Of a stretch of 6,296 bases of DNA, positions 1 through 5,892 are shown in pieces. Position 1 is the first letter of the stretch. Each line of letters begins with the position of its first letter. Source of the DNA: Chlamydiota bacterium (GTDB lineage: Bacteria; Auribacterota; JACPWU01); the NCBI GenBank assembly GCA_016196885.1, contig JACPWU010000048.1, forward strand, positions 1 to 6,296, written 5' to 3'. A model generated the notes under the pieces. It saw only the letters and a list, made by a program, of their open reading frames with translations. It was not told the origin of the DNA and ran no database searches. The position numbers and the translations under genes are program-made.

Positions 1-429
1 CATGGCTTTCGAGGCTTTGGAGGCGGCTTTTTGCGCGTTTCGAGCCTGCTCTTCCGCTTGTCTGGCCTGGTCTTCTGCTTCTTTGATTTGGTTTTTGAGT
101 CGTTCACCGTATTCAAAGCTGGTTTGGGTTCCGTATTGATCCAGTGTGACAATGTAGTCGGGATGTTCTATTTTTTCGGATGTTATATCTAGTGTTCTGA
201 GCTTGAGGAGAGGTTCATACTGGGTTTTTTTGGGTTTTTTTTGCAGGGTTTTTACTTTTCCCCCTATACGTTCTGGGGAGATAAATCCTTCTTTTGAGAT
301 TTCTGGGCTGATGATGCTTTGGAGGGGTTCGCTGGCAGCTTGGGTGTCATTAATGATGTCAAGAGGGAATCCCCAGAGGATTTGTTGAGCGATTAAGACG
401 ATGGCGAGAATGTGTTTGATGTTTTTCAA
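1..429 (-). CDS. Hypothetical secreted or membrane-anchored protein with a TTG start; the C-terminus is cut off by the window edge
   Basis: The minus-strand frame with codons at plus positions 3n-2..3n has no stop from 465 down to position 1. It has no in-frame ATG except at 3..1, so the ATG-only track misses it. TTG at 429..427 follows a G6 run (plus-strand C-run 434-439) with a 4-nt spacer. Translation: MKNIKHILAIVLIAQQILWGFPLDIINDTQAASEPLQSIISPEISKEGFISPERIGGKVKTLQKKPKKTQYEPLLKLRTLDITSEKIEHPDYIVTLDQYGTQTSFEYGERLKNQIKEAEDQARQAEEQARNAQKAASKASKAM... It has a hydrophobic N-terminal signal or anchor segment and a charged, coiled-coil-like tail. Confidence 0.5.
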   Translation of the reverse strand, partial: MKNIKHILAIVLIAQQILWGFPLDIINDTQAASEPLQSIISPEISKEGFISPERIGGKVKTLQKKPKKTQYEPLLKLRTLDITSEKIEHPDYIVTLDQYGTQTSFEYGERLKNQIKEAEDQARQAEEQARNAQKAASKASKAM

Positions 430-459
430 TATTCCCCCCGATAGGATTGAATGGGGTGG

Positions 460-468
460 ATTATATCA
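460..468 (-). promoter_or_regulatory. Candidate extended -10 promoter element (TGATATAAT) for the downstream TTG-start gene
   Basis: The minus strand reads TGATATAAT across 468..460, a perfect TGnTATAAT. It lies about 30 nt upstream of TTG 429 in the 77-nt gap after the integrase stop. No convincing -35 was seen. Confidence 0.3.
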
Positions 469-505
469 GAGGGTGAGGGGTTGTGCTTTATTTTTTTTAT
501 CGTTC

Positions 506-2131
506 TTATTTTCCTCTTCTTGCTTCTTTTTCTCTGGGATGGGTTTTTTCGTGTGCTTTTTTTAAGTCTAGGGGGAGGATTCGGGTGTAGATTTGGGTGC
601 TGGAGAGTGAGCGATGGCCCAGTTGCTCTTGGATGTGCCTGATGTCTGCATGGTTTTTGAGCATGCCTGTGGCACAACTGACTCGCCAGGAATGAGAGGA
701 GTAGGTTTTTCTCATGCCGCTTTTATGGCAGCATCGCCTCATGACGCTGTTGACGACTTTTCCAGAGATGGGGCCTCCTTTTTCTGATAGGAAGAGGAGT
801 CTCTCACATCCGCTTTGAGCTGCCATGTTGAGTCTGGTTTCATCCAGGTAGCGTTTGACCCAGTGGAGTGCGATTTCTCCGATGGGGATGATTCTTTGGA
901 ACGAGGGGCCTCCTTTGGGGTTTTCGATTTTTAGGAGGCCGTGTTCAAAGTCTATGTCTTCGATTCGGATGCTGGATGCTTCTCCGACTCGTGATCCTGT
1001 GGAGTACATGAGTTCAAAGATGGCTCTGTTACGAATGCCTGTGGGGCGGGTCATGTCGGGCGAATGGAGCAGGATTTTGATGTCTCGTTCGTTCATGAGC
1101 CGGGTGTGTAGCCCTTCCGTGTGTTTGGGCCAGGTCATTTTGCGAGTGGGATTGGTGAGGATTTGGTCTGTTCGCTCACACCAGTCCATGAAGGCTTTTA
1201 CGGCTCCTAGTTTGGCCCATTTTGTGGCGTCACTCCATTTTGTGTTTTCGTATATTTTGTTTCTGTATTTTTCTAGGACGCCCAGTGAGATTTGCTGGAT
1301 GTCTTCGATCCCAATTTCTGTGAGGTGTTGGAAGAATTTCTCAAGCTGATGCTTTTTCCCCAGAATGGTGCTCTTTCTTAATCTGATTCTTACCTCACTT
1401 AGGTGTTTGTCTAACGTGTCTTGCCAATGAGGAGAAGTGCAGGGTTTCTGGATGATTTCTTCTCGTGTGTCTTCACTGAATGCGTATTTGAACCCTCGAG
1501 TGGGATCATTCCCTCTATATCCATTTTGATGGCTCCATCGGATGAGGCTCTTTAGGAGGTGAAAGATTCGGGTGCGCCCCACACGATAGAGCAGTGTCCC
1601 AAAACGCTGTGCGGGGTAAAGGTCTAGCTCTTTTGCAATTTTTTCTAAAATTTCTCGATCCAAGGTCTGTAGTTTTGTCTCATATTTTGTGAGCAGTGTT
1701 TCGAGCTTTCTATATTGGGTGAATAGGAGTGGGATGTGAGCCAGTCTTTTCTTCCTTTTTCTGAAGGCGGTTAAATAGGCTCTTAAGATTTCTCGGTCAG
1801 TGTAGGATCTTTCTTTGATGGGCCGCTGGGTGAAGCGATACGGAAGGACTGGGCTTTCTTGAATGATGTCCCTGGATTTAAGGTAACGGTAGAAGTCTCT
1901 GACTCCCCTGACATATTCCCAGGCTGTGAGCCGATGATACCCTCGCTCTAAATAGAGATGTTCCCTGAATGAGTTGATGAAGAGGGCATCTACATGGATG
2001 CTGTCTTTGCCTTTGTCTTTTAAATATTCTAGGTAGTACCTTAGGCCCAGCTTGATGTGGTCATATGCTCCAGGTTTGTATTGGGTTTTTGTTTCTTCTA
2101 AAAATCTTTGGATGTGGTGTTCTGGTGACAT
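506..2131 (-). CDS. Tyrosine recombinase (phage integrase family), unusually long, with two N-terminal SAM-like core-binding domains
   Basis: 541-aa ORF. The C-terminal catalytic domain carries the canonical residues: Arg in YSTGSRVGEA, HxxR in HSWRVSCATG, LGH in EQLGHRSL, and the Tyr nucleophile in STQIYTRI. There are two SAM-like segments, at roughly aa 5-95 (..FYRYLKSRDIIQESP) and aa 255-335 (..FMDWCERTDQILTNP). A good SD (GGTAGAGGT) ends 8 nt upstream of the ATG. Confidence 0.95.
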   Translation of the reverse strand: MSPEHHIQRFLEETKTQYKPGAYDHIKLGLRYYLEYLKDKGKDSIHVDALFINSFREHLYLERGYHRLTAWEYVRGVRDFYRYLKSRDIIQESPVLPYRFTQRPIKERSYTDREILRAYLTAFRKRKKRLAHIPLLFTQYRKLETLLTKYETKLQTLDREILEKIAKELDLYPAQRFGTLLYRVGRTRIFHLLKSLIRWSHQNGYRGNDPTRGFKYAFSEDTREEIIQKPCTSPHWQDTLDKHLSEVRIRLRKSTILGKKHQLEKFFQHLTEIGIEDIQQISLGVLEKYRNKIYENTKWSDATKWAKLGAVKAFMDWCERTDQILTNPTRKMTWPKHTEGLHTRLMNERDIKILLHSPDMTRPTGIRNRAIFELMYSTGSRVGEASSIRIEDIDFEHGLLKIENPKGGPSFQRIIPIGEIALHWVKRYLDETRLNMAAQSGCERLLFLSEKGGPISGKVVNSVMRRCCHKSGMRKTYSSHSWRVSCATGMLKNHADIRHIQEQLGHRSLSSTQIYTRILPLDLKKAHEKTHPREKEARRGK

Positions 2132-2155
2132 TTTTTATACCTCTACCTTTTTCTC

Positions 2156-2268
2156 TCCAAGTTGTCCAAGATTTGTTTTCTAAAGATGACTCATCGTCTT
2201 ATCAATCACTTACATCTAAAAAAGAACTAAATATCTTGGATTCCAAGATTTTCCAAGATTCCAAGTTG
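2156..2268. repeat. Iteron-like TCCAAG repeat clusters flanking an AT-rich core, between the replication gene stop and the integrase start
   Basis: TCCAAGTTG occurs at 2156-2164 and 2260-2268. TCCAAGATT occurs at 2165-2173, 2242-2250 and 2252-2260; 2241-2260 is a 10-bp tandem TTCCAAGATT x2. ATCTTGGA-T-TCCAAGAT at 2233-2249 is a perfect 17-bp palindrome. The clusters bracket an AT-rich ~60-bp segment (2174-2232) that contains the palindrome GATGACTCATC (2185-2195). Confidence 0.8.
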
Positions 2269-2298
2269 TGAATAACTCGTGCTCGGATTTTTTGGACA

Positions 2299-4302
2299 TT
2301 ATTGCGCACATAGTTGATAGACTTTCCGCGTGGTTCTTCCGCTTCTTTTGAGGATGACATATTCCAGGTCTTCTAGTTGTCTCATTTGGCTTTTAACAAC
2401 GTGGTCCGGTAGGGCTGTCCACTTTCTGATGTCTCGGCGTGTGAATGTGAAGTCTTCGGTGGATAGTTCTTTTGCTTCTTCATTTACTTTCTTTTTGAGT
2501 AGATCGTAGAATTTGGCCAGGGGTTGCGGTAAGTCTAATACTATGTTGTTGAAGATGCCTCGCGTGAGGTCTCGAGCCATTTCATAATCTTTTAATGTGG
2601 CTTCGATGATTTGCCCCCCTCTTTCATCAATACCCCCTCTTATTTTAAGAGGGGCTTGGGGAGTTACTTCCCTAAAGGGGTCGGGGGAGTTATTTCCTCT
2701 TTGGTACTGATACAGGAGCGCTATGACTTTAATGAGGCTTAAAAATTTGTCGTAGTCTCGCCGACTCCTTAATGTCTGATACGGAAAGTCTATCTCTAGC
2801 TCGCGAGGGATTTTGACTGGATGCGCTTTAAGGAGCCTTTGTGCATTGTGATAGAGTCTCTTCAGTTTCTCTTCTTCCTCCAGGGTGATTCCCTCGCCTG
2901 AGGCCTTTTTCCTTTGTGATTCCTGGATTCTTTTGGTTTGTTCAATAGATTCATCAAGATAGAGCTCAAAGCAGCGATTTAGATTCTCTTCATTAATTTT
3001 CTCTTTGGTGGATGATTCCATGTAGGGGGTTCGGGCACTAAATTCTTTGAGATGGGTTTTCCATTCTCCTGTTTTGGGGTCTTTTCCAGATGCGGCAAGG
3101 GATAGTTTTCCCCTGGATTGTAGGCTTCGGATGGAGTAGTCGGCATCACTACTTCCATCCCGTTCATCTACCGCTACGATTTTTCCGTCTAACTCTTCTG
3201 GGCTCATGTAAAATAAACTCTGCGCTGTGATTCTTGTGAAGAAGTGCCATTCAGTTCGAGGGATAAATTGTAGGACGTATTCCATGAGTGTGGATTTTCC
3301 TCCTGCACTCCCCGATCGGACGATGGCGCTCGTGGGTTTGTCCATGAGTCTTGACGTTGCAATAAGGTAGAGGATTTTTTTGTTGGTTGATTCTCCTACA
3401 TAGCCCAGGCGGTCTAGGTCACTGGCCATGCGATCGAGAAGATTAGGGTCCTTCAATAATGTAAGAGCTTCTTCTTTCTCTTGTTCTGTCATCTCGTTTT
3501 GCTTCTCCTGACCGCTGAGTGCTGAATGCTGAACGCTCTCTTCTAACTCTTCCATCATCACTTCAAGATGCTCTTCCACTTGTGCTGACTGTAGACTCAG
3601 TCTCTCTGCTGCTTGATTTGAAAAGCTTCTCCGGGCCCTGGCGCTGTGGAGATCTGTTCTGTCTGTGAACTGTGAGTCTTGATGAGTGAGTTTCAAAATA
3701 ATCTTGAGATGATTCTTCGTGGCATTCTTTAAATCTTTGACTTGATATATGAGATCACCGTATTTAAAGGTCGCTTGATCTTCGCTTCGCTCGACAAGCT
3801 CGGATGATGGATCTTGGATGATGGATGGTGGATGAGAGGTAGTTTTGTTTTTTCCATGATCCACAATCCATGATCCATGATCCTCGCTGAGGGGCTTTAG
3901 AATTTCCCTCAACGATTCGCCATTCCCATTCAACTTCGGCATCGGACAAATGAGCTGCCTTAAATATTCCATCGCCCTTGGAAACGCCACTCCATGCGCA
4001 TGCTCAATAAAATCTATGATCGTTCCCCCGTGATGCCCTCCTTCACAGTTCCATAACCACACCCCCTTATCCTGATTCATCCTCAACCGAGGAGACCTCA
4101 ATTTATCCTCGTGGAATGGGCATGTCCCCTCATATTGACCATTGACCCATGATAGACGTACCCCTTTGTCTTTCATGATTTGGCGCAGGTCTAACATCTT
4201 CACTTGTTGGATTTCTTCAGGTGTGAACTTGTGGTAACCGTTATTGGATGGTACTTCGAGTAGCTCCTGCATATTGGCCCCCTTGTCTCTGTCTCCATTC
4301 AT
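2299..4302 (-). CDS. Replication protein: N-terminal CHC2-like zinc finger, central P-loop NTPase, probable C-terminal winged-helix domain (primase/helicase-like initiator)
   Basis: 667-aa ORF. The DnaG-type zinc finger motif is CPFHEDKLRSPRL...WNCEGGHHGGTIIDFI (about nt 4030-4122). Walker A is RSGSAGGKSTLMEY (nt 3289-3315). Walker B is KIVAVDERDG (nt 3157-3183). The C-terminus FTFTRRDIRKWTALPDHVVKSQMRQLEDLEYVILKRSG looks wHTH-like. An alternative start at ATG 4272 (MQELLEV..) has the better SD (AAGGGGG, 5-nt spacer). I could not recognise a TOPRIM or AEP catalytic motif. Confidence 0.9.
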   Translation of the reverse strand: MNGDRDKGANMQELLEVPSNNGYHKFTPEEIQQVKMLDLRQIMKDKGVRLSWVNGQYEGTCPFHEDKLRSPRLRMNQDKGVWLWNCEGGHHGGTIIDFIEHAHGVAFPRAMEYLRQLICPMPKLNGNGESLREILKPLSEDHGSWIVDHGKNKTTSHPPSIIQDPSSELVERSEDQATFKYGDLIYQVKDLKNATKNHLKIILKLTHQDSQFTDRTDLHSARARRSFSNQAAERLSLQSAQVEEHLEVMMEELEESVQHSALSGQEKQNEMTEQEKEEALTLLKDPNLLDRMASDLDRLGYVGESTNKKILYLIATSRLMDKPTSAIVRSGSAGGKSTLMEYVLQFIPRTEWHFFTRITAQSLFYMSPEELDGKIVAVDERDGSSDADYSIRSLQSRGKLSLAASGKDPKTGEWKTHLKEFSARTPYMESSTKEKINEENLNRCFELYLDESIEQTKRIQESQRKKASGEGITLEEEEKLKRLYHNAQRLLKAHPVKIPRELEIDFPYQTLRSRRDYDKFLSLIKVIALLYQYQRGNNSPDPFREVTPQAPLKIRGGIDERGGQIIEATLKDYEMARDLTRGIFNNIVLDLPQPLAKFYDLLKKKVNEEAKELSTEDFTFTRRDIRKWTALPDHVVKSQMRQLEDLEYVILKRSGRTTRKVYQLCAQ
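2615..2697. repeat. Hairpin plus direct repeats embedded in the replication gene
   Basis: CCCCTCTTA (2634-2642) and TAAGAGGGG (2646-2654) form a perfect 9-bp inverted repeat with a 3-nt loop. CCCCCTCTT also occurs at 2615-2623. GGGGAGTTACTTCC (2658-2671) and GGGGAGTTATTTCC (2684-2697) are 13/14 identical direct repeats. The encoded peptide (..NNSPDPFREVTPQAPLKIRGGIDERGGQ..) is low complexity. Confidence 0.7.
3801..3882. repeat. Converging arrays of 7-nt repeats inside the linker-coding part of the replication gene
   Basis: 3801-3835 is five exact-phase heptads: GGAT-GAT GGAT-CTT GGAT-GAT GGAT-GGT GGAT-GAG. 3853-3882 is four inverted heptads, ATG-ATCC ACA-ATCC ATG-ATCC ATG-ATCC, preceded by a degenerate TTCC. 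A T-rich spacer separates them (3836-3852). The arms can pair as an imperfect stem of about 30 bp. A 7-nt period is not a codon multiple. Confidence 0.8.
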
Positions 4303-4549
4303 TCAGTTCTCTTTGCCTCAAGAGATCGAACATTCGATCTTTGAGCCCATCAATCGCTTGGCGGTACTTCACCACATTCCCTGAAGCGATGCCCCTTCGA
4401 TACTCTTCCTTCAAGCCCTCCAGCCGATCCCCAATAAACACGAACACCACCGACTTTTTCTTCTGAGGGTGGGGGATCAAATCCTCCAACTCCATCCCTT
4501 GTGTTAAAAACCACGCCCCTTCATACAGGTCGGTTGTTAATATCTTCAT
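4241..4549 (-). CDS. Small DUF5659-like protein (mobile-element or phage-associated, function unknown)
   Basis: 102-aa ORF with a good SD (GGAGAAAG, 7 nt before the ATG). The pattern TTDLYEGAWFLTQGMEL..KKSVVFVF..L..LKEEYRRG.A.GNV.KYRQAIDGLKDRMF matches my recollection of the DUF5659 consensus (TxDLYLAAxL..G..L....V.FVF....Y..g.a.V....lK). The 3' end overlaps the replication ORF by 62 nt, or 32 nt if that ORF starts at 4272. Confidence 0.7.
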   Translation of the reverse strand: MKILTTDLYEGAWFLTQGMELEDLIPHPQKKKSVVFVFIGDRLEGLKEEYRRGIASGNVVKYRQAIDGLKDRMFDLLRQRELNEWRQRQGGQYAGATRSTIQ

Positions 4550-4691
4550 CTTCTTTCTCCATCTTGAGTTCTTCCAACATCTCTCGTATCTTCTCCATCG
4601 CTTCCTTGCAATATCCCCCCAACTCGACCCCCTTCCATAAAATGGTCATGGGATAGACCAGCCGGTTTGAAATCCTGTGAAGAAGTTCATC
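4521..4691 (-). CDS. Candidate small first gene of the minus-strand operon (56 aa, unknown function); frame uncertain
   Basis: The frame from ATG 4691 gives MNFFHRISNRLVYPMTILWKGVELGGYCKEAMEKIREMLEELKMEKEDEDINNRPV, which is helical and protein-like, and overlaps the DUF5659 start by 29 nt. A competing frame (ATG 4701 to TGA 4546, 51 aa, MEKDELLSQDFKPAGLSHDHFMEGGRVGG...) has GAGG 4 nt upstream and an ATGA overlap with the ATG at 4549. Its product is G/R/D-rich and looks like an off-frame translation. Both are under 60 aa and absent from the track. Confidence 0.35.
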   Translation of the reverse strand, partial: DELLHRISNRLVYPMTILWKGVELGGYCKEAMEKIREMLEELKMEKEDEDINNRPV

Positions 4692-4764
4692 CTTTTCCAT
4701 ATCGCCTCAACGATTTTTTTAACCTCTGTCAAGAGGGAAAATAACGCATTTTAAATGTAAATAT

Positions 4765-4792
4765 ATTATAGATATTATCTATATTCTGTCAA
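4765..4792 (-). promoter_or_regulatory. Consensus sigma70-type promoter for the minus-strand operon (small ORF, DUF5659-like gene, replication gene, possibly integrase)
   Basis: The minus strand reads TTGACA (4792..4787), a 16-nt spacer, then TATAAT (4770..4765). Both hexamers are perfect. The predicted start of transcription is near 4758, 55-70 nt upstream of the first candidate ORF. Confidence 0.65.
4767..4783. promoter_or_regulatory. Candidate operator: perfect 8-bp inverted repeat TATAGATA-T-TATCTATA
   Basis: The 17-bp palindrome lies in the spacer and overlaps the -10 of the consensus minus-strand promoter. A third half-site-like copy, AATCTATA (4797-4804), sits next to the plus-strand -10. 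The divergently transcribed XRE regulator is the obvious candidate binder. Confidence 0.5.
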
Positions 4793-4813: not shown

Positions 4814-4819
4814 TATAAT
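4814..4819 (+). promoter_or_regulatory. Candidate -10 (TATAAT) for the XRE gene, implying a leaderless or near-leaderless transcript
   Basis: A perfect TATAAT at 4814-4819 overlaps the first ATG (4818). The second in-frame ATG (4827) lies 8 nt after the hexamer, where transcription would start. No SD-like purine run precedes either ATG, and the -35 is poor at a 16-18 bp spacing. Confidence 0.35.
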
Positions 4820-5216
4820 GATTACCATGAAAGCGGGAAGACCCTCTAAATCACAACGTACAGATTTCGGCGAACGATTGCACGGCTTGAGGCTTAATGC
4901 TGCCTTGTCTCAGCAACAGGTTGCTCAATCTCTTGGGATTTCACAGCCTTCTTATGCTCTTTGGGAAAGACGCAATGTATCGGTAACTCCGGATCAGCTC
5001 ATCAAATTAGCCAAGATTCTTGGAATCGATATCGAAGAGCTTTTCTTCGATTCTGATAAAGGTAAAAATTCTAGAAAAGGTTTGAGAGGACAAGCAAGAC
5101 GTACTTTCGAGATTCTCTCCAATATGCCAAGACACCAACAAAAGAAGGTCATTGATGTCGTCCAGGCTCTCATTTCGGCACAAAGTCAGCAAGTTAACAA
5201 TCACCCCATGCTATAA
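4818..5216 (+). CDS. XRE / Cro-CI family helix-turn-helix transcriptional regulator with a C-terminal extension
   Basis: 132-aa ORF. The classic HTH_3 pattern is FGERLHGLRLNAALSQQQVAQSLGISQPSYALWERRNVSVTPDQLIKLAKILGIDIEELF. The C-terminal ~55 aa (..GQARRTFEILSNMPRHQQKKVIDVVQALISAQ) resemble the tail seen in many phage or mobile-element XRE regulators. The true start may be ATG 4827 (MKAGRPSK..). Confidence 0.9.
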   Translation: MITMKAGRPSKSQRTDFGERLHGLRLNAALSQQQVAQSLGISQPSYALWERRNVSVTPDQLIKLAKILGIDIEELFFDSDKGKNSRKGLRGQARRTFEILSNMPRHQQKKVIDVVQALISAQSQQVNNHPML

Positions 5217-5228
5217 TCGAAAAACATC

Positions 5229-5720
5229 ATGACGCCTCGATATAACATCTATCTCGACACATCTGTTTTCAACCATGCCCTCTGGAGTTCTAATCCTCTT
5301 TTTAAGGAAGAAAGTTGCTGGCTTTTTGAAGAAATTAATAAAGGCCGATTCGAAGCCTTTACGTCTGGTGTTACAATCGATGAGATTGAGAAAGCCCCAA
5401 CAGAAAAGAGATTGCGTTTGTTCGAGCTTGTGGATTCGTATCCTGTTGAGATTATAAAACCTATCGATCAAGATCATATTGATTTAGCACGAACCTATCT
5501 CCAAAAAGGCGCCATTGCTAAAGGAGAGACGAACGATGCTCTTCATATCGCCGTAGCCTCAATAAAAGGTATAGAATTAATTGTCAGCTTAAATTTTCAG
5601 CATATGGTAAAATTTAAGACGAACATTATGGTGAGTACGATTAATGCTCAAAACAACTTAAAGGCGATTGAAATACGTTCGCCAGGGATGATCAAAGATG
5701 AAATCATACGATCCAGATAA
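5229..5720 (+). CDS. PIN-domain protein (VapC-like putative ribonuclease toxin)
   Basis: 163-aa ORF. PIN signature positions are NIYLDTSVF (first Asp), VTIDEIEKAP (Glu), ETNDALHIAVASIKGIELIVSLNFQHMV (conserved Asp and the terminal xNFxH motif) and the ..IEIRSPGMI tail typical of this PIN subfamily. It starts 12 nt after the XRE stop, with no obvious SD. Confidence 0.9.
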   Translation: MTPRYNIYLDTSVFNHALWSSNPLFKEESCWLFEEINKGRFEAFTSGVTIDEIEKAPTEKRLRLFELVDSYPVEIIKPIDQDHIDLARTYLQKGAIAKGETNDALHIAVASIKGIELIVSLNFQHMVKFKTNIMVSTINAQNNLKAIEIRSPGMIKDEIIRSR

Positions 5721-5892
5721 AGAACTGCATAAGATTAGAAAAGCCATTGGGCAAGAGCTTGAGCACCTCGGTTCACGGGAGTTCCTCAAACGGCTCAATG
5801 AGCGAACCACTAAAATTATTAATGAGCATGGTTGGCAGAGTCGCGTCCGGCATCTTCCCAATGTCAAGATCAAGTACCGCCAGGCCGCATAA
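5698..5892 (+). CDS. Small helical protein overlapping the PIN gene's 3' end; candidate PIN partner (antitoxin-like)
   Basis: 64-aa ORF MKSYDPDKELHKIRKAIGQELEHLGSREFLKRLNERTTKIINEHGWQSRV.. Its start overlaps the PIN stop region by 23 nt. AGGGA lies about 9 nt upstream. It is charged and helical, resembling small proteins I recall next to this PIN subfamily. A 109-aa antisense ORF (5658..5987) covers the same DNA but looks spurious. Confidence 0.55.
   Translation: MKSYDPDKELHKIRKAIGQELEHLGSREFLKRLNERTTKIINEHGWQSRVRHLPNVKIKYRQAA

Follow-up and report, generated by a model that had tools for sequence, protein, structure and literature searches.

The antitoxins associated with PIN-domain toxins that were catalogued in 2009 (DUF433, COG2886, COG2880, COG1753 and MerR-like proteins) have DNA-binding folds and belong to families other than the one described here, and that survey and a later one also list ribbon-helix-helix (RHH), AbrB, Phd and helix-turn-helix (HTH) partners of PIN (Matelska et al. 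2017, PMC5499597). The later survey describes the PF01850-type subclusters PIN.4-PIN.7, of 'function unknown', whose genomic contexts are unlike canonical toxin-antitoxin operons, and it describes no downstream partner of about 55 amino acids (aa). Here we analyse a stretch of DNA of 6,296 bp (the window), which is an entire contig (JACPWU010000048.1) of a Chlamydiae metagenome-assembled genome and of which a 2,959-bp copy is present in GCA_016178005.1. It carries a gene for a VapC-like PIN-domain protein, situated between an upstream gene for an XRE-family HTH regulator and a downstream open reading frame (ORF) of 64 aa. An earlier note on this DNA had proposed that the three genes form one cassette, in which both neighbours are candidate neutralisers of the toxin. 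From the comparison of homologous loci, we conclude that the conserved unit consists of two genes, PIN and its downstream partner, and not of three, and that the XRE gene is the backbone repressor of a mobile element rather than a dedicated component or a toxin neutraliser.

The layout that the earlier note had read from the sequence was exact. The XRE gene (132 aa, or 129 aa if translation begins at the Met at position 4827, as in the NCBI annotation) ends with a TAA at 5214-5216, 12 nt before the PIN gene (163 aa), and the 64-aa ORF begins 23 nt inside the 3' end of PIN, in a different frame. A Pfam search, one of the checks that the note had suggested, assigned HTH_3 to the XRE protein (3e-11, residues 24-75), which leaves a C-terminal extension of about 56 aa where about 55 had been estimated, and PF01850 to the PIN protein (1.9e-9, 38.6 bits with a cut-off of 23.6). 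No family was assigned to the 64-aa protein, and its description as a protein with no DNA-binding motif also held, as no Pfam or NCBIfam domain was found at E<=1 in eight partner sequences, namely that of the window and those of seven diverse members of its family.

Judging from its pattern of substitution, the 64-aa ORF is a genuine gene. When compared with its 70%-identical orthologue in L001, the only other independent locus of the Chlamydiae type, it has an omega of 0.15 (Nei-Gojobori), and of 0.14 in the part that does not overlap PIN, versus a pN/pS of 1.2 for a shifted frame of the same DNA; it is thus conserved at the protein level, contrary to the refuting condition that the earlier note had set. 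The PIN gene has an omega of 0.14 in the same comparison. The start of the partner (M1, K2) is conserved in relatives whose PIN proteins are only 37-47% identical. The 64-aa protein is absent from a collection of 15 billion proteins and is uncalled in the public annotation of the GenBank copy, and therefore gene callers have missed it. A word-based homologue search with this protein returned one relative only, and the family was recovered through genomic context; the partner proteins that do occur in public collections are all (9/9) unnamed or called 'hypothetical protein'. Members of the family are about 55 aa long and basic, with two predicted helices and the consensus 'E-I-H-x-I-R ... Y-E-E-x-K'. 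The median isoelectric point is 9.4 for the partner versus 5.2 for PIN, and the positive charge of the partner is concentrated in its C-terminal third.

This downstream gene accompanies PIN across a wide range of organisms. The genome set comprised 80 loci from Omnitrophota, Nitrospirota, Elusimicrobiota, Spirochaetota, Bacillota, Planctomycetota, Desulfobacterota, other phyla and one Methanomassiliicoccaceae archaeon, and contained 88 PIN ORFs for which 200 nt or more of downstream sequence was available. Using an iterated hidden Markov model (HMM) of the partner (E<=1e-3), the adjoining same-strand downstream ORF was matched in 67 of the 88, and 17 more carry in that position an ORF of 40-100 aa from one of three variant groups, so that 84 have a partner when the variants are counted and four have nothing. 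The HMM matched 72 of 4,830 ORFs, 69 of them adjoining an intact PIN gene and the other three adjoining a PIN gene that is fragmented or was miscalled by the ORF script (L032, L039 and L067). An independent set of 80 metagenome loci, whose PIN relatives were found by a profile scan and not by a single-protein scan, gave a partner-family ORF after 69 of 72 distinct PINs. The earlier note had asked whether PIN homologues keep a small gene downstream, and on these results they do.

The three variant partner types share with the main family only a short 'LHEIR'-like core. The variant 'MPYFSEFYQVEVR…GLHEIRVR' occurs at 11 loci (L060, L065, L066, L068-L070, L076, L079, L081, L083 and L087). The variant 'FDYYK…ELHVLRALKSRYW', together with the related 'FPxDxALQEVH', accounts for four ORFs that form one BLAST cluster (the first copy in L053, and L074, L075 and L085), and 'DAVKLMRxIRDQMS' is found at two loci (L048 and L084).

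The junction between the two genes has a median of -4 nt, with 67% of the pairs overlapping, usually by 1-8 nt, and 94% falling within -30 to +20 nt; such a geometry is typical of translational coupling. The two proteins also diverge together, since PIN and partner distances are correlated over 129 distinct pairs (Mantel r=0.63, a value reached in 0 of 1,000 permutations). In one protein, P0066 (197 aa), the two are joined in a natural in-frame fusion (…AWIDKIRLEMYEQTKNMSYEEMHDYFRNK…), the only one among the top 150 representatives. Its AlphaFold model has a pLDDT of 93.4 and a pTM of 0.78, and the partner segment forms two helices with a pLDDT of about 82-94, although this fusion may reflect a sequencing frameshift. 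Tandem modules, two within a few hundred nt, are present at six loci (L014, L020, L028, L041, L053 and L054), and the contig PMCS01000009.1 carries at least three PIN-partner modules. Phd/YefM, RelE-like and MNT genes are found in PIN-partner neighbourhoods. On two Leptospira plasmids, pLiSL47 of L. interrogans (L088, 2483-3128) and pLiSL20 of L. kirschneri (L089, 2501-3128), the module lies directly downstream of the replication-initiator gene; RefSeq names the PIN protein 'VapC family toxin' in one of them and 'hypothetical protein' in the other, and the partner, of 57-63 aa and overlapping PIN, is a 'hypothetical protein' in both. A pair of this kind from an L. interrogans plasmid has the accessions WP_000014356.1 and WP_000044296.1.

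On the upstream side, no conserved gene was found in the 88 loci. A Pfam scan of the 88 same-strand upstream ORFs gave an HTH domain in four. These come from L001, from the window and from two identical copies of the window, and consequently represent two independent loci that are both of the Chlamydiae type; in the metagenome replicate an upstream HTH was found in 1 of 49 ORFs. The suggestion that PIN homologues keep an upstream XRE gene was therefore not borne out. Otherwise the gene upstream of PIN may encode an efflux pump, a radical-SAM enzyme, an amidase, an integrase or a DNA methylase, and occasionally it is a toxin-antitoxin gene, of Phd/YefM type (Phd-type in two upstream ORFs) or, by inspection, RelE-like or MNT-like.

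A comparison of the window with L001 places the boundary of the conserved unit. The XRE proteins of the two loci are only 25% identical, versus 75% for PIN and 70% for the small protein. At the nucleotide level (blastn), the similarity, of 76% identity, starts exactly at the ATG of PIN (5229) and stops 34 nt past the stop codon of the partner (5926), and there is none across the upstream XRE gene. Despite this divergent XRE, L001 has a backbone of the window type, with counterparts of the 102-aa and 59-aa genes that are 53% and 40% identical respectively.

The XRE family itself is found in the absence of PIN. Homologues of the window XRE are 48-72% identical to it, and in all five homologue contexts that were obtained (XRE identity of 49-58%) the XRE gene is divergent from a zinc-ribbon/Toprim primase gene and a tyrosine integrase gene homologous to those of the window; HMM searches found neither PIN nor partner in these five loci. 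What follows XRE in those contexts is variable, being nothing, a convergent gene, a resolvase or a 95-aa gene of unknown function. Over its full length the XRE protein has an RstR-like match (4e-15, NCBIfam, below the curated cut-off) and a CapH-like match (1.9e-6), and it also matches PHROG 'transcriptional repressor' families. Its AlphaFold2 model consists of a five-helix HTH domain (residues 17-76), a flexible linker and two C-terminal helices (89-127), and the Foldseek neighbours of this model are restriction-modification C-proteins, ClgR, DdrO, CapH, SinR, ImmR, Stl and the lambda and P22 repressors. The protein has the architecture of cI/RstR-type repressors, an XRE-family HTH followed by a C-terminal region with a predicted role in oligomerisation, and its gene has the divergent position next to a backbone and the intergenic palindrome, a predicted operator, that go with such repressors.

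These results suggest that XRE is the repressor of the element backbone, because the PIN clade lives without an upstream XRE gene, the XRE family lives in elements without PIN, and the homology with L001 begins at the ATG of PIN. It is probably co-transcribed with the PIN-partner pair while standing outside the conserved module. We weighed this against a true three-component toxin-antitoxin system, with XRE as a dedicated regulator, the 64-aa protein as antitoxin and PIN as toxin. The tight spacing of three co-directional genes, the presence of XRE upstream in both independent Chlamydiae-type loci and a candidate operator and promoter upstream of XRE would all fit such a system, and a separate regulator would make sense for a partner with no DNA-binding domain. 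However, the dissociation goes both ways, with PIN and partner almost everywhere lacking XRE and the XRE family lacking PIN and partner in five of five primase-integrase contexts, and the divergence of XRE between the two Chlamydiae-type loci is far greater than that of PIN and partner. We regard a dedicated third component as unlikely, and the single cassette with two candidate neutralisers of the earlier note is not upheld.

The genes on the other side of XRE (integrase, primase-like, 102-aa and 59-aa genes) are divergent from it, and thus the XRE, PIN and 64-aa genes sit on a small integrative mobile element. The intergenic region between the two directions is 117 nt long and contains a palindrome that falls within the spacer of a consensus promoter facing leftward, and that is overlapped by a weaker promoter-like site facing XRE. 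As the count of such weak sites in the region equals the chance expectation, the latter is only a hint. This layout of promoters and palindrome resembles a genetic switch, and a terminator-like hairpin downstream of the partner is likely the end of the XRE-PIN-partner transcript, as far as consensus patterns can tell. A promoter-like site for the partner inside PIN (5581-5608, 9/12) was not adopted, since the number of such sites is that expected by chance.

The PIN protein is, by its sequence and by the predicted fold of a relative, a member of a large and distinct VapC-like clade with an intact metal-binding site. A search with the PIN profile places 4,563 clusters (50% identity) in the clade at E<=1e-3, or 1,726 at E<=1e-10, and its typical members score only marginally against PF01850. 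D10 is conserved as Asp or Glu in 80 of 82 homologues, E52 in 87 of 87 and D103 in 88 of 89, and this conservation of the metal-binding residues makes an active PIN nuclease likely. At the fourth position, which is usually acidic in VapC, every homologue has Asn122 (89/89), and His106 and His125 are likewise invariant, within the motifs D-A-x-H-I-A and S-(W/L)-N-F-x-H-(I/M)-V-K; the 'xNFxH' motif of the window protein is LNFQH at residues 121-125. A polar residue at the fourth position has been reported as tolerated by some VapCs (PMC5499597). The PIN profile gave no sequence-level match in the PDB, and the partner profile likewise gave nothing meaningful. The model of the family member P0066 does have a VapC-like fold, its Foldseek neighbours being AF1683 (1w8i), the VapC chains of M. 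tuberculosis and Rickettsia VapBC complexes, Shigella VapC and PcrIIC1 (VapC chains matched include 5x3t, 3zvk and 6a7v), all with 20% identity or less.

A mechanism can be proposed from these observations. The PIN protein would be a Mg2+-dependent endoribonuclease toxin, and the partner, produced by translational coupling, would be a protein antitoxin with no DNA-binding domain that binds the acidic PIN protein and occludes its active site, possibly through the conserved E-x-H-x-I-R helix or the basic C-terminal tail. The pair would occupy a variable cargo slot just behind the XRE repressor gene, where it would be transcribed together with XRE and therefore expressed in the quiescent state of the element; its effect would be to stabilise the element by post-segregational killing or to provide defence. 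XRE in turn would repress the leftward replication/integration promoter through the palindrome in its spacer and would probably autoregulate its own operon, so that it would in practice be the transcriptional regulator of the pair at this locus and still not a conserved third component. We consider it reasonably probable that the pair is such a co-inherited, coupled cargo module behind XRE, in which PIN is an endoribonuclease toxin, the partner its antitoxin, and the two together stabilise the element or protect the host. A role of the toxin-antitoxin type is suggested because the distribution is patchy and spans both domains, tandem duplicates occur, the neighbourhoods are rich in toxin-antitoxin genes and the Leptospira copies sit beside the plasmid rep gene.

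Several observations weigh against this interpretation. The invariant Asn and the two invariant His residues are atypical for VapC, and the chemistry or the target of the PIN protein may differ from those of the VapCs that have been studied. The partner is basic, unlike many acidic antitoxins, and, lacking a recognisable DNA-binding domain, it offers no account of autoregulation at the many loci that have no regulator. The promoter, operator and terminator calls are consensus matches only, and two independent loci of the Chlamydiae type are too few to say that the pair generally sits behind a repressor gene in this clade. Finally, the viral contigs of IMG/VR contain no relatives of PIN, and in Pfam, NCBIfam, PHROGs and PADLOC the 64-aa protein has no match and PIN has the generic PF01850 one only; a defence role is therefore without direct support.

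Some of these same features would suit a two-subunit enzyme for RNA processing or another task on nucleic acids, in which the partner is not an inhibitor and acts as a cofactor, a specificity subunit or a nucleic-acid-binding subunit. A Lys/Arg-rich tail is suited to binding nucleic acid, a covalent fusion such as P0066 is more easily explained by cooperating subunits than by a toxin and its antitoxin, and the unusual active site and the lack of matches in defence databases and viral sequences point in the same direction. On the other hand, fused toxin-antitoxin proteins such as EzeT and CapRel are known, the nearest solved folds are VapC toxins, and the spread of the pair over many phyla and one archaeon is patchy and has the look of horizontal transfer. 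Tandem duplication also counts against such an enzyme, as do the sites where the pair resides: beside rep on plasmids, in an integrative element and close to other toxin-antitoxin genes. An enzyme pair seems to us improbable, and we retain the toxin-antitoxin interpretation as the working one.

The canonical antitoxin-first arrangement fares worse. Here XRE would be an HTH antitoxin that binds PIN by its C-terminal extension, in the manner of HigA/Xre-PIN pairs, and the 64-aa protein would be accessory or unrelated. The order and spacing of the first two genes are indeed canonical, in about 16% of PIN toxin-antitoxin loci the antitoxin is of HTH type (PMC5499597), and residues 98-126 of XRE weakly match an NCBIfam VapB model (E=0.085). 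This match is far below any threshold, however, and XRE homologues without a neighbouring PIN gene also keep the extension (GGPxGKARRVFExVSxLPRHQQKKIxDVVEAL), so that it cannot be a PIN-specific neutralising tail. With the PIN clade nearly always lacking an upstream HTH gene, and with the resemblance of XRE over its full length to RstR, CapH and phage-type repressors, we hold this arrangement to be very unlikely. The weakest alternative, a solitary PIN gene overlapped by chance by a 64-aa ORF that is uncalled in the public annotation and belongs to no database family, is refuted by the purifying selection on that ORF, its cross-phylum position, its conserved start codon and its co-divergence with PIN.

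Coordinates of all the features are collected in the following table.

Features of the 6,296-bp window, with positions on the forward strand
Feature	Position	Strand	Evidence
Element backbone	506..4700	-	Pfam and NCBIfam; divergent from XRE
Tyrosine integrase, 541 aa	506-2131	-	Pfam, NCBIfam
Primase-like CHC2 zinc-ribbon protein, 667 aa	2299-4302	-	Pfam, NCBIfam
102-aa gene	4241-4549	-	L001 counterpart
59-aa gene	4521-4700	-	L001 counterpart
Weaker promoter-like site, TTTAAA, 17 nt, TATTAT, 9/12	4750..4778	+	Faces XRE-PIN-partner; overlaps palindrome
Sigma-70 consensus promoter, TTGACA, 16 nt, TATAAT, 12/12	4765..4792	-	Faces 59-aa, 102-aa, primase and integrase genes
Perfect 8-bp inverted repeat TATAGATA-T-TATCTATA, candidate XRE operator	4768..4784		Core of inverted repeat I11
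XRE/cI-type repressor gene	4818..5216	+	HTH_3, homologue contexts, AlphaFold2 and Foldseek
PIN-domain (VapC-like) nuclease gene, predicted toxin	5229..5720	+	PF01850, conserved residues
Two-gene homology block shared with L001	5229..5926	+	blastn
64-aa partner gene, proposed antitoxin	5698..5892	+	Omega, downstream conservation; no family model
Terminator-like hairpin and T-run, about 140 nt past the partner stop codon	6030..6069	+	Consensus scan

The backbone of the window is homologous to those of the elements L091-L098, with identities of about 30-33% for the integrase and 28-35% for the primase. The primase-like protein of the window has retained the CHC2 zinc ribbon (aa 30-115) along with a C-terminal region of about 500 aa with a Walker-A-like GSAGGKST, and it is without the DNAG_N/Toprim segment that is found in the homologous primases of all the related elements, which are 900-1,045 aa long as one gene or split into adjacent genes (L096). 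Its residues 11-121 and 165-664 align to these relatives, and the approximately 300 aa between them are absent. With this segment gone, the element of the window may have arisen by deletion or may be non-autonomous. At the far end of a related integrase-primase-XRE element, L097, a Gp49/HigB-like gene and a 120-aa gene (304-992, minus strand) would be a different cargo of the toxin-antitoxin type in the same element family.

Amid diverged DNA, a stretch of 23 nt is 100% identical between the window (4509-4531) and L001 (260-282). It is located where the 59-aa gene overlaps the 102-aa gene, and may be a conserved site or just a strongly constrained overlap. Inside the primase gene (3794-3891) there are two tandem 14-mers (3799-3826) and a hairpin; the Rfam matches of this region are of miRNA and snoRNA type, sub-threshold (E of 0.01-0.4) and probably due to chance. 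Scanning the window for tRNAs and Rfam families gave no tRNA, no tmRNA and no credible RNA family, and hence no tRNA could be identified as an att site, and no long terminal repeat that would mark a circular contig was found in it. Both ends of the contig (5893-6296 and 1-505) are non-coding, and pyrimidines abound at the right one, which has CCCTTCCC-like runs past the terminator-like hairpin.

Full-text searches of a literature library found no description of a PIN toxin with a downstream partner of this family, and the pairing appears to be undescribed. The proposal of an undescribed module in the earlier note thus stands in that the pairing has neither a database model nor a literature description, and falls in that the module has two genes rather than three. 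The PIN clade of the window may correspond to one of the subclusters PIN.4-PIN.7.

If the partner is an antitoxin, the pair would be a large new PIN toxin-antitoxin family with an inverted gene order and an antitoxin with no DNA-binding domain, and how such modules are regulated becomes a question. In our estimation the chances are about equal for and against a still wider statement. This is that the W/L-N-F-x-H PIN clade and its partner of about 55 aa form a toxin-first PIN toxin-antitoxin (or defence) family that is very widespread and has gone unrecognised, with at least 4,500 clusters at 50% identity in many bacterial phyla and at least one archaeon. The antitoxin would be of a new two-helix class lacking a DNA-binding domain, many 'solitary VapC toxins', including those of pathogenic Leptospira plasmids, would be complete modules whose partner gene is routinely missed or labelled hypothetical, and small Chlamydiae integrative elements would wire the pair into a repressor operon and so make a circuit of regulator, toxin and antitoxin. 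Should the partner be the antitoxin, the annotation of thousands of 'orphan' PIN/VapC genes, for which the partner of about 55 aa is unannotated or uncalled, would also be corrected, among them the copies beside the plasmid replication gene of Leptospira interrogans. The plasmids of pathogenic Leptospira are a culturable source of the module. The window itself, a compact integrase-primase-repressor element from an environmental Chlamydiae genome with a cargo slot behind its repressor, informs on the maintenance of small elements in that phylum. The pair is not a new kind of system, because the mixing and matching of toxin-antitoxin partners and the reverse gene order in other toxin families are already established.

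Among described systems, the position of the pair on its element brings to mind that of the lambda cI-rexAB genes, where genes with an accessory protective or addiction role sit directly behind the maintenance repressor gene and, in quiescence, are read from the promoter of that gene. Both have cargo behind a repressor and a divergent promoter-operator switch, a predicted one in the window, that faces replication and integration genes; however, the element of the window is about 6 kb, with an integrase and a primase and no virion genes, and its cargo is a PIN pair and not RexAB. With omega-epsilon-zeta and paaR-paaA-parE the pair shares an antitoxin, here a proposed one, that has no DNA-binding domain, and in the window also a separate HTH regulator upstream in the same predicted transcription unit. 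The three genes of those systems are co-inherited, whereas in the present case the regulator is part of the element backbone, and about 97% of PIN-partner loci lack it.

The order of the genes is that of higBA, mqsRA, hicAB and brnTA, where the toxin gene comes first and a small antitoxin gene follows it within a single operon, but the toxins of those systems are of RelE, HicA or BrnT type and not PIN, and their antitoxins autoregulate by means of HTH or RHH domains, of which the partner has none. The resemblance to VapBC comprises the VapC-like PIN fold, the conserved Asp-Glu-Asp metal site, a small coupled neighbour, the occurrence on plasmids and mobile elements and the patchy, multi-copy distribution. 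It differs from VapBC in being toxin-first and in a partner that has no AbrB, RHH, Phd or HTH domain and matches no VapB family, as well as in the invariant Asn at the fourth catalytic position, the D-A-x-H and W/L-N-F-x-H motifs and the low identity to solved VapCs. Where VapBC has a DNA-binding antitoxin gene upstream, these loci have heterogeneous upstream genes and a conserved neighbour downstream that lacks a DNA-binding domain. The PIN-partner pair would thus function most like VapBC, and yet it departs from the architecture by which VapBC is defined.

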